Below, one piece after another: positions 36,001 through 39,000 of a stretch of DNA of 64,000 bases. Origin of the DNA: Escherichia coli. GTDB lineage: Bacteria > Pseudomonadota > Gammaproteobacteria > Enterobacterales > Enterobacteriaceae. Positions within the stretch are counted from its first letter, which is position 1, and the number at the start of each line of letters is the position of its first letter. The position numbers were made by a program. The stretch lies in assembly GCF_045037415.1 (NCBI RefSeq), contig NZ_CP173438.1. One strand, 5' to 3'.

Positions 36001-39000
36001 GCAGTTGCCATGTTTTACGGCAGTGAGAGCAGAGATAGCGCTGATGTCCGGCGGTGCTTTTGCCGTTACGCACCACCCCGTCAGTAGCTGAACAGGAGGG
36101 ACAGCTGATAGAAACAGAAGCCACTGGAGCACCTCAAAAACACCATCATACACTAAATCAGTAAGTTGGCAGCATCACCCAATCTGCTGACAGACGAAGA
36201 TAATGAACCCGTTATGGTTTTTAACGGAGAGAGGAATGTACTGGCAGACAGTCTGAAACCACAGCCTCTGATTCTTCCGGTCAAGGGAAAATAAGCGTAA
36301 TGTTCATCACCAGATTATGTACGATGAGTTTTCCACTGTTTATAGCAATTATCTTGCTAATAACCAGACAGGAGTAACCAGACCAACCGAAAACACCGGG
36401 AAGGTGATTACCCGCTGGCAGAGGAAATCCGGTTTTTTTTGATGTCAGCCATAACGTGTTTGACAATAAAGCATCATGAAAGGGTGTTAATGAGTCCATG
36501 GGATAATTCATAAAAATAATTTACTGTGTTATCCTTTTCAAAAGAAATATTCAGAAGATAACCCCTGGCTGACAACCAGGGGAAGGGGGCATTAACAGTG
36601 TTATTATTGGTGAATAAATTATTACTTGTGTGCAGGATACACTAATGCAATATCTACTGATACTGTATGCCAGTATGTTTCATGCCTGCCGCTGAAAACG
36701 GCAATATCCAGGGCCAGATATATTCACCATTCATATTTCTGCATTTCTGTACAATTTTCTCAGAAAGCGTCTCATCAATTCTTTCACGCAACTTCTCCTG
36801 CTGTCTTAAAATACTTTCGCATATTTCGAAATCATCTTCCTGCATCAGCATTTCGGCGCATTTAATGATTTCTGCCCGTTCATGCAGCACAGAGGAATGA
36901 TTATAGAGCCAGTTTACAAACAGCAATGCTTCCGGATATTGCCCCCATAACGGGTGGTATGTGGCATAATAATCTTCGGCAGTATCCGGACCGCCTGAAA
37001 AGTTATGCCATACAGCAAGTGGAAATGGATGCAGATTTCCGCACAGTATTTCTGCGATGTAAGTATTTGCCGCAAAGCCGCGACGAAATGCAGTTGCAGC
37101 TTTTACCAGTTCCCCATTAAGAAAATGCAGAAGGCCGAGTTCATACCAGTAAGGTGAAAATTCATCTGCATGTTCCTGCAGTATATGGCGTGCCTGTTCA
37201 TGAGCGCCAGTGCGTAACAGTTCCGGTCCCAGTAGCCAGCGTGCACCATGATTATCTTCGGGATTGTAATCCAGTATTTTTTCAATGAGCATGATGGCAT
37301 CCTGATGACGCTGTAAATGTGCATTTGCCAGGATTGCCGCATAGAGGGCACGAAGAAAAGGTCGGTTGTCAGGATGTATCCAGATGATTCTGCCACTGAA
37401 ACCTTCAGGGATAAGACGATTGCCAATTGCCAGCCCTTTAAGGGCAGCATTCAGCGCCTTACGCGGGGCATTCTGCTCCAGAAATACGTATGCCAAGTGA
37501 GCGTGTACATCAATAAAGTCATTCTCCTGTCGGGCAAGGCGCCTGAGTTTGTTGATGTAACTTGTTTCGCTGATTTCATCCGCATCGTATGCATCAATCA
37601 GTTCTTCAAACTCATCCAGCAACGAGCCAAACCAGGTTTCCGGAAATATGAAACAGCCCTGGTTATCGTTCACTTCAAAGCGTAATTTGCCAGTCATATT
37701 CTGAACCTGTAAAAAAGGATGGACCATAACCTGCAGGCTATAAAAATTGTGATGCCTGGCATCGGTGTCCTTTTATTGTCCGGGATTAACGTTGCCCATG
37801 ATAATACAGTGAATTCTGTTCTGTGGTAAGACGTTGAGTTATTGAATGAGAACCTCAGCCTGGCTGATGGTTCCGCCGGCATAAAAAAGAAATTGATTGA
37901 GGCGGGTGCTCTTCCCCTTAAGAGGAAGAGCATGTGTGTAAATGGCGTTCAGTCACCTTTTCAGTGGATTGTTAACTTTTGCATATTCAAACGGACTGAT
38001 ACACTCCTCCCTGTTTGCATCCAGAAAATCTGCCCACCATTGCAGCATAAGCCGACGTTCTTCCAGATGTTCTGCTTTATGAATATACGCGGCACGTACT
38101 CCGTTGCGCTCCTGATGACTCATCTGACGTTCAACCGCATCTCTTGACCATAAGCCGGATTCAATCAATGCACTGCACGCCATCGCCCGGAATCCATGGC
38201 CACAGACTTCCTTGGTTGTGTCATACCCCATCACTCTGAGGGCCTTATTTACGGTATTTTCACTGATTGGTTTACGTGGGTCGTGTGCTCCCGTAAAGAT
38301 CAGACCATTTTCACCTGCCCATGTCTGAAGTTCTGCCAGTATGGCTACAGCCTGTTGGCTGAGTGGCACAAGATGTGGTGTTCGCATCTTGGAGCCCCGG
38401 TATGAAAATTTTACGCCTGGCAGAGGTTCGCGTTCGGCTGGAATAGTCCACATGGCATTGTCAATATCAATTTCAGACCAGCGGGCATATCTGAGTTCAC
38501 TGGAACGAATAAAAACCAGTAAATTCAGCATAACTGCCAGTCGGGTGACAGGCTGGCCTTTATAACCGTCAATACGCGACAGAAGTTCAGGCAGGCGTGA
38601 AAGATCCAGAGCAGGGCGATGCTGGCGTTTTACCGTGGTCAATGCACCAGCCATATCCAGAGCCGGGTTATATCTGATGATGCCAGACTGTACGGCATAA
38701 CGCATTACAGCAGATATTCTTTGCTGCAGACGACTGGCGATTTCATAAATTTGTTTAACTTCTGCAGCACGAACAGGGATAAGCAGATCCGGGGTACTGA
38801 GTGTTGTGATATCCCGGTTGCCGATAAAGGGGAAAACGTGAGTCTCGAGGCTTTTGAGTACTTTATCGCTGTGTGATTGTGCCCATTGTTTATTACTGGC
38901 ATGCCAGCGTCGTGCAATATGTTCAAAAGAGAGCTGTAAATCAGGGACTACTTTTTTAGCTCTTTTCTGTTCGCAAGGGTCAACCCCCTCCGAAATCAGT

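Follow-up and report, generated by a model that had tools for sequence, protein, structure and literature searches.

What does the first gene behind the integrase of a pheV island encode, and what might such a gene do for the bacterium that carries it? We addressed this question for a 64,000-nucleotide (nt) stretch of DNA from Escherichia coli (RefSeq assembly GCF_045037415.1, contig NZ_CP173438.1), hereafter called the window, in which an uninterrupted open reading frame (ORF) on the minus strand occupies positions 36654..37727 and specifies 357 amino acids when counted from its first ATG. An initial annotation of the same DNA had described the product as an uncharacterised protein, probably alpha-helical, in a position where P4-type islands often carry accessory functions. 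As detailed below, the ORF is almost certainly sisA, which by sequence is the paralogue of Shigella flexneri shiA that is typical of uropathogenic E. coli (UPEC) and of strain Nissle 1917. Its product is predicted to be a tetratricopeptide repeat (TPR) scaffold, and its family has a very probable, distant relative in the eukaryotic TCF25/Rqc1 proteins.

Identity and gene model of the first cargo gene

Three observations lead us to identify the ORF as sisA. First, both members of the sisA primer pair of Lloyd et al., as reprinted in Hagan et al., find an exact and single match in the window, at positions 37456-37475 (minus strand) and 37173-37197 (plus strand). Second, these primers discriminate among the relatives of the gene. 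The sisA reverse primer has no site in four copies of the ShiA/SisB type even when up to six mismatches are allowed, and the sisB reverse primer has no site in the window. Third, a ShiA-type protein from S. flexneri (P0007) aligns with the window protein at 84% identity, without gaps and over 347 of 347 residues, where the published identities to ShiA are 83.3% for SisA and 96.8% for SisB. The top match in the AlphaFold database, UniProt Q6KD66 ('ShiA homolog [Escherichia coli]'), is 100% identical to the window protein, and further matches in this database carry the label 'ShiA-like' or 'SHI-2 pathogenicity island protein'.

As sisA, the gene can no longer be called uncharacterised: it is already named, is listed among virulence-associated genes, is common in E. 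coli, and has published mutant phenotypes as well as documented expression in human urinary tract infection. The names sisA and sisB stand for 'shiA-like inflammation suppressor' and denote E. coli homologues of Shigella shiA. As later papers recount the primary work, ShiA lowers intestinal inflammation during Shigella infection, with fewer neutrophils and T cells being recruited, and shiA, sisA and sisB mutants are reported to provoke more host inflammation in animal models. An early colonisation defect of mutants is also described, as is a down-regulation of the kidney immune response in mice by sisA and sisB. Expression of shiA is induced anaerobically, and six of eight women with urinary tract infection had sisA transcripts in their urine (Hagan et al.). 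Published in vivo transcripts of sisA thus exist, and no housekeeping or metabolic family was matched by its product; absence of transcription and homology of that kind were the two findings named beforehand as counting against the initial annotation.

The published record also shows where the interest of this gene lies. The use of sisA as a virulence marker calls for caution, because the gene is carried by the probiotic strain Nissle 1917 and the laboratory strain REL606, and because isolates of enteroaggregative E. coli from cases and from controls carry it at the same rate, shiA being present in 35% of each. The 'inflammation suppressor' reported in 2003 represents a reproducible in vivo phenotype with a gap in mechanism behind its name. 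A 2026 study, in which sisA was deleted only jointly with hes, calls for targeted work on sisA. In the literature that we searched, a set that lies outside the primary ShiA and SisA papers, no molecular mechanism, fold or link to TCF25 is described for ShiA or SisA. One review labels ShiA as 'predicted cytoplasmic… putative quinone reductase'; none of the searches in this analysis supported ShiA as a quinone reductase.

The ORF itself has the properties of a genuine gene. It is as long and clean as first described, with overlapping ORFs in other frames that reach only 122 and 115 amino acids. The length of 357 residues holds for the ORF but not for the protein, whose start needs to be moved. 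RefSeq places the start at the second ATG (37697), giving a product of 347 amino acids (WP_000147017.1, a coding sequence in the Nissle 1917 annotation), and 48 of 48 aligned homologues begin at the methionine of this second ATG, none of them spanning the 10 extra codons. Because all of these homologues begin at the same residue, the 347-residue form is likely to be the better gene model, with its start 30 nt downstream of the first ATG. Pairwise dN/dS values (ratios of nonsynonymous to synonymous substitution rates) between paralogous copies are 0.14-0.25, and on this basis the SisA protein appears to be under purifying selection, as expected of a real gene rather than a chance reading frame. 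Diversifying selection on sisA was considered and rejected on the same values.

Over the sisA gene the G+C content is 40-48%, versus 50-55% on the speC side, and a 1.6-kb stretch that includes the gene is shared at 100% identity with Nissle 1917 and many other E. coli strains. A sigma-70-like promoter candidate precedes the start codon by about 100 nt and falls inside the 255-nt gap behind the integrase gene, and a terminator-like hairpin follows the stop codon. These two elements, which are consensus matches only, are consistent with sisA being a self-contained monocistronic unit.

A predicted TPR solenoid and its probable relation to TCF25/Rqc1

The early guess that the protein would be alpha-helical is borne out by an AlphaFold2 model, which was computed on a family alignment of 49 diverse members and reached a mean predicted local distance difference test (pLDDT) value of 95.3 and a predicted template modelling score (pTM) of 0.90. 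In this model a small N-terminal beta-hairpin is followed by 17 helices, and SisA is thus predicted with high confidence to be a hairpin joined to a TPR-type alpha-solenoid. Library scans with the single protein return only marginal TPR matches (best E 0.0017, Pfam). The family profile gives an E-value of 4e-29 against consensus TPR proteins, and the hhalign value against an idealised consensus TPR (CTPR) is 97.8%. By these profile comparisons the family is a genuine TPR family over residues ~46-220.

Conservation in the 49-member alignment is concentrated in the motifs IPxxFxGxIxW, NRPFLRA, NPxDNxG, YPPYxYELAL, AATxLRxGFxxNxYIAE, PxPLxxWH, ERA, IDDxLS and PW. Residues P97, A169, Y185, A200, R205 and R274 are invariant, and the near-invariant ones include N111, R112, P146 and D148. 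No enzyme family was matched in scans of Pfam, NCBIfam, PADLOC and PHROGs, in keeping with the original remark that the ORF product has no assignable motif, and no catalytic domain was detected.

Structure comparison points to a particular relative among the many proteins built from such repeats. In a Foldseek search, yeast Rqc1 (9ofv, chain v) gives the best superposition on the SisA model, with a template modelling (TM) score of 0.58 and a root-mean-square deviation (rmsd) of 4.8 Å, and ranks seventh by E-value; the other matches have TM scores of 0.28-0.46 and an rmsd that is often above 10 Å. Sequence profiles point in the same direction. The Pfam model Tcf25 (PF04910) matches 3 of the 49 family members at E<=1e-3 and 10 of the 49 at E<=0.1, with P0085 reaching 7.6e-6 over model positions 26-214 of 337. 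A shorter sister group of ~281 amino acids, which is homologous to the ShiA/SisA family at 99.9% probability, is matched by the same model in five of five cases, the best at 4.4e-11.

The relation can also be followed at the level of individual residues. A TCF25 motif served as bait only, retrieving Rqc1 residues 420-485 from PDB sequences, and the residues printed by HMMER were used thereafter. This fragment recovered four eukaryotic TCF25 exon fragments, yielding a small TCF25 alignment. When the SisA family is compared with this alignment, hhalign reports a probability of 96-97% (P ~2e-10) and pairs N111, R112, P146, D148 and G151 with N423, R424, P458, D461 and G464 of Rqc1. Thus, the family signature N-R-x-F…P-x-D-x-x-G aligns on the most conserved residues of TCF25/Rqc1, and a preprint counts N423 and D461 among the three positions that are most conserved across Rqc1 homologues. 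Because long TPR-like models can gather score from generic repeats, we ran two specificity controls. Elsewhere in the SisA profile the TCF25 fragment scores at best 9.1, versus 62.6 for the placement above, and the same fragment scores 22.8 against the idealised consensus TPR, with a probability of 8.6%. Taken together, these results make a common ancestry of the ShiA/SisA family and the TCF25/Rqc1 core very probable.

Several points weigh against this relation. The window protein itself has no match to Pfam Tcf25 at E<=10, and Rqc1 is absent from the top 60 entries of family-profile searches of PDB sequences, where designed and generic TPRs dominate. The residue-level test spans 73 residues rather than the whole domain, because the protein collection yielded no more than five exon-sized pieces of eukaryotic TCF25. 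Moreover, the C-terminal domain of Rqc1 in 9ofv is an AlphaFold model that was rigid-body fitted into a low-resolution map, and so the structural match sets one prediction against another. Finally, the conserved N and D residues appear to be fold-stabilising, so that homology does not carry function across.

How far does the relation extend? We class SisA as a distant homologue of the core domain and not as an orthologue of TCF25, because it lacks any counterpart of the parts of Rqc1 that bind the ribosome and contact Ltn1. At an alignment offset of ~313, SisA, which starts at the beta-hairpin in both the alignment and the AlphaFold2 model, has nothing that corresponds to Rqc1 residues 1 to ~310, including the ribosome-binding region 1-175 and residues F214/D215, which contact Ltn1. 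Residues E637/E657 of Rqc1, which contact ubiquitin, would map to the variable, low-confidence C-terminal tail of SisA. Since SisA lacks these contact regions and falls below Pfam detection, and since E. coli to our knowledge has no ubiquitin, Listerin or Cdc48, the function of TCF25 cannot be transferred to SisA. The assignment of both fold and ancestry is new relative to the literature searched.

Genomic distribution and proposed mode of action

Among 5426 complete E. coli genomes, 1961 carry sisA or a close paralogue, in up to five copies each; 1367 of these records have a copy of the sisA type (at least 99%), and 578 have the 80-90% type only. We inspected four diverged E. coli copies, and in three of them the gene directly follows that of a P4-type integrase at selC or pheV. 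A convergent gene for a phosphoethanolamine transferase comes next in all four, and in the fourth copy an IS1 element replaces the integrase. The suggestion that the first slot behind the pheV integrase holds accessory cargo is therefore upheld by the recurrence of this gene order, at both pheV and selC, in other strains.

The family reaches far beyond E. coli. Full-length homologues of ~335 amino acids are found in Morganella, Xenorhabdus, Azovibrio, Verrucomicrobium, Methylobacterium, Rhizobium and many metagenomic lineages, and representatives at 50% identity number 91 at E<=1e-30 and 368 at E<=1e-10. Plasmid records that carry a homologue number 80, of which 47 are conjugative, and a family search of 50,697 phage records returned no carriers. 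Hence the family is widespread in Proteobacteria and, beyond these, in many phyla, where it occurs on plasmids, in Tn3 transposons and in mobile or defence islands. It is not pathogen-specific, and in non-pathogens it is mainly the cargo of mobile elements.

This picture of the contexts outside E. coli rests on ~15 hand-inspected loci, and ~11 of 14 such neighbourhoods are mobile or defence-rich. In Morganella, Serratia (pQC19) and Klebsiella (pKPC_CAV1193), a 340-residue ShiA-like gene resides within a Tn3-family transposon, divergent from tnpA. Tn3-borne homologues (L006 3325-4901; L022 6001-7577; L023 6001-7577) extend by 4-34 nt into the beginning of the serine recombinase/resolvase gene, an arrangement suggestive of co-transcription of the two genes. 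The Azovibrio homologue lies between Fic and HTH_17 genes, together with a helicase-DprA pair, a methylase and a NERD-kinase; that of Verrucomicrobium is surrounded by AbiEii, HipA and ISL3; and that of Methylobacterium is found behind MqsRA and near a relaxase. Among metagenomic genomes, one homologue adjoins Fic, AAA_21, TIR and DruA, another is upstream of a helicase/MZB/PLD trio resembling DISARM, another is beside a type I restriction subunit, a type IV secretion system coupling protein and an AAA/Schlafen-AlbA pair, and yet another is in a region rich in insertion sequences. The Rhizobium homologue follows an extra S21 gene and is near imuAB, a ligase and SRAP. Some homologues occupy chromosomal neighbourhoods that look ordinary. 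At every inspected locus, the ShiA/SisA-family gene is solo.

Some further observations were made at these loci. In Rhizobium rhizogenes (L011 7705-8990; L012 286-1655), and in this one lineage only, the extra S21 gene is 50 nt upstream of the homologue, a curious neighbour in view of the relation to TCF25/Rqc1 and ribosome quality control. A RecD2-type helicase (OB_YrrC/HHH_RecD2/AAA_30) is found a few kb from the homologue on two unrelated metagenomic contigs (L019 3636-6101; L035 10838-12999). A 3.5-kb contig of a metagenome-assembled genome named 'Collinsella sp.' (L025 1993-3033) carries a copy that is 84% identical to SisA, which most likely reflects contamination of the bin with enterobacterial DNA. 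Some longer homologues show apparent domain fusions; these were set aside, as they resemble artefacts of frameshift or read-through, or N-termini that had not been annotated.

What, then, does SisA do? We consider it probable that sisA encodes a TPR scaffold that works in the cytoplasm as a non-enzymatic adaptor and that affects inflammation indirectly, with the adaptor mode being much less certain than the identity of the gene. SisA would act inside the bacterial cell as a protein-protein adaptor, its conserved surface would hold partner proteins in the way that TPR scaffolds and Rqc1 do, and the dampened inflammation of the host would be a downstream and indirect consequence of this intrabacterial activity. 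The combination of a TPR scaffold without visible export signal, a family spread by mobile elements and a TCF25/Rqc1 core suggests an adaptor of general use to bacteria that probably influences inflammation only indirectly. Some considerations sit less easily with this proposal. We infer the cytoplasmic location from sequence alone, and SisA is a candidate adaptor only. In addition, a role inside the bacterium explains the host-inflammation phenotypes only loosely.

The contexts described above invite a different explanation, in which the gene is a fitness factor for its carrier element, be it an island, a plasmid or a transposon. The protein might, for instance, counter or modulate defence or stress systems of the host, or stabilise the element, and the infection phenotype would then be incidental. 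The prevalence of mobile and defence-rich surroundings (including the Tn3 transposons of three genera), the 80 plasmid records with their 47 conjugative ones, the solo occurrence of the gene and its place directly behind the integrase in E. coli all speak for this explanation. On the other hand, this is guilt by association only. The known and candidate defence models of PADLOC-DB v2 yield no family at E<=1, no PHROG family matches the window protein, and no effector or nuclease domain is present; the absence from phage records and the ordinary chromosomal settings of some homologues also count against it. We therefore regard a mobile-element fitness factor as unlikely. The same evidence divides the initial suggestion of a defence or regulatory role, for which the frequent location of homologues in defence or mobile islands keeps the possibility alive as a matter of context and the lack of any PADLOC model match speaks against it.

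A bolder proposal takes the TCF25/Rqc1 relation at face value. ShiA/SisA would be the prokaryotic branch of these proteins and would share their mode of action on targets that are ribosome-bound or tagged with ubiquitin or a ubiquitin-like protein, an idea that we hold to be quite doubtful. Such a shared mode could operate within the bacterial cell, where the protein would be a proteostasis or conflict factor borne by mobile elements, or in the host, where, once released, it would mimic TCF25. If true, it would provide both a first mechanistic handle on the 'inflammation suppressor' of 2003 and a bacterial relative of a eukaryotic quality-control factor.

The host-acting version can be judged separately. 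Here SisA/ShiA would reach the host and bind ubiquitin and/or a RING ligase, or ribosomes, thereby perturbing ubiquitin-dependent inflammatory signalling. Rqc1/TCF25 positions both the acceptor ubiquitin and the RING domain of Ltn1, which, along with the homology to these proteins, the best structural match and a published phenotype that concerns host inflammation, gives this idea its appeal. However, no signal peptide or membrane segment, and thus no secretion signal, is visible in the SisA sequence, and family members are common among free-living and plant-associated bacteria. The regions of Rqc1 that would be most relevant to mimicry are also those with no counterpart in SisA, or, as for E637/E657, would fall in a poorly conserved tail. 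Mimicry of TCF25 in the host is accordingly a very unlikely explanation.

Even less probable is an accessory factor of the adjacent site-specific recombinase that controls integration, excision or resolution. Its attraction is positional: sisA is directly downstream of P4-type integrases and co-oriented with them at pheV and selC, the Tn3 copies overlap a serine recombinase gene in three genera, and the Azovibrio homologue adjoins an HTH_17/AlpA-like gene. The tyrosine and serine recombinases are nevertheless unrelated classes, many homologues have no recombinase nearby, and the gene is still intact where the integrase has been lost. Scans of Pfam and NCBIfam reveal no DNA-binding domain in SisA, and a 347-residue TPR solenoid is unlike the small helix-turn-helix or winged-helix excisionases.

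As improbable is a LapB-like TPR adaptor that alters lipopolysaccharide (LPS) or the cell surface, possibly with the phosphoethanolamine transferase, and so lowers TLR4-driven inflammation: it would link a cytoplasmic protein to the inflammation phenotype and draws on the convergent synteny with the transferase gene conserved in E. coli islands and on the name 'LapB' given to some homologues by the NCBI annotation pipeline PGAP, but the NCBIfam scan matched no LapB family, LapB chains superpose poorly on the SisA model (TM 0.28-0.36, rmsd above 20 Å), distant homologues lack a transferase neighbour, and IS1 destroyed the transferase gene in the window, though this sisA allele type has a reported phenotype. 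These explanations are not all mutually exclusive, and the intrabacterial adaptor remains the one that we favour.

Island setting and comparison with known systems

The order of genes in the window is speC, yqgA, pheV, tyrosine integrase, sisA, IS1, papX, inverted IS1 and papA remnant (Table 1), which agrees with the initial placement of the ORF between the integrase and an IS1/pap remnant.

Table 1. Positions of sisA and of associated features in the window
Feature	Position	Strand	Basis or remark
sisA coding sequence, 347 amino acids plus stop	36654..37697	-	ORF, RefSeq start, homologue alignment, published primers, ShiA identity
In-frame 10-codon extension to the first ATG; 357-residue form of UniProt Q6KD66	37698..37727	-	Probably untranslated: homologues and RefSeq omit it
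Sigma-70-like promoter candidate, TTACCA-17-TATTAT	37801..37829	-	Consensus scan only, not proof of function
Terminator-like G+C hairpin, CCCCTGG-TTG/TCA-CCAGGGG, with T-rich tail	36562..36582	-	72 nt past the sisA stop
Tyrosine integrase of the island, 421 amino acids, oriented as sisA	37953..39218	-	ORF; NCBIfam PRK09692 integrase domain, E 2.5e-73
tRNA-Phe (pheV), island attachment site, adjoining yqgA and speC	39416..39491	-	ARAGORN; Nissle annotation
Degraded 3' remnant of a phosphoethanolamine transferase gene (frameshift and stops)	36299..36494	+	tblastn, residues 488-554 of the L003 transferase
IS1 copy bounding the sisA module, ends approximate	35412..36179	-	insA/insB ORFs 35427-36124; terminal repeat ~36179; Nissle annotation

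The IS1 copy that bounds the sisA module truncated the phosphoethanolamine transferase gene. Antisense to the transferase remnant, RefSeq lists a hypothetical protein of 76 amino acids (WP_001333708.1, 36281-36511, minus strand), which matches no NCBIfam family and is probably spurious. Farther along, papX (34409-34960) is flanked by two inverted IS1 copies, at 33440-34137 (plus strand) and 35427-36124 (minus strand), and a papA remnant (32810-33411) is located just upstream of this segment. The IS1-papX-IS1 layout (33440-36179) is reminiscent of a composite transposon, one that took the place of most of the pap operon and of the first part of the island cargo. The integrases that precede ShiA/SisB-type copies at selC or pheV are 394-396 amino acids long, compared with 421 for the integrase that precedes sisA in the window. 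Given this difference, the TPR gene travels with more than one integrase lineage.

How does SisA compare with systems that are already known? Some members of the ShiA family resemble passenger genes of Tn3-family transposons, in that they occupy the space between tnpA and tnpR, with an overlap into tnpR. Toxin-antitoxin pairs are known from this tnpA-tnpR position. The sisA gene of the window differs from such passengers in that it is borne by an island with an integrase rather than by a Tn3 element, and in that SisA carries neither toxin nor antitoxin domains. Generic TPR adaptors, such as MamA, YrrB, the TPR domains of Rap phosphatases, LapB and NlpI, span only ~170-190 residues of SisA and are devoid of the features that define the family, namely the N-terminal hairpin, the NRPF/NPxDNxG signature and the C-terminal helical cap.

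TCF25/Rqc1 (PF04910) is a subunit of the eukaryotic machinery for ribosome-associated quality control. SisA is half its size, without the basic, disordered N-terminal region through which Rqc1 binds ribosomes and without the stretch of the C-terminal domain through which Rqc1 contacts the Ltn1 RING. The closest known counterparts are ShiA, encoded by the SHI-2 island of S. flexneri at selC, and SisB of strain CFT073, which belong to the same family, have the same 347 residues and are likewise encoded by the first gene behind an island integrase. Mutants of shiA and sisB share with sisA mutants the reported phenotype class of more inflammation. The window carries the sisA allele type, which is ~14-16% diverged from copies of the ShiA/SisB type and can be separated from them with the published primers. 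It also has the gene at pheV in an island rearranged by pap and IS1 sequences, where the usual downstream phosphoethanolamine transferase gene survives only as a remnant.

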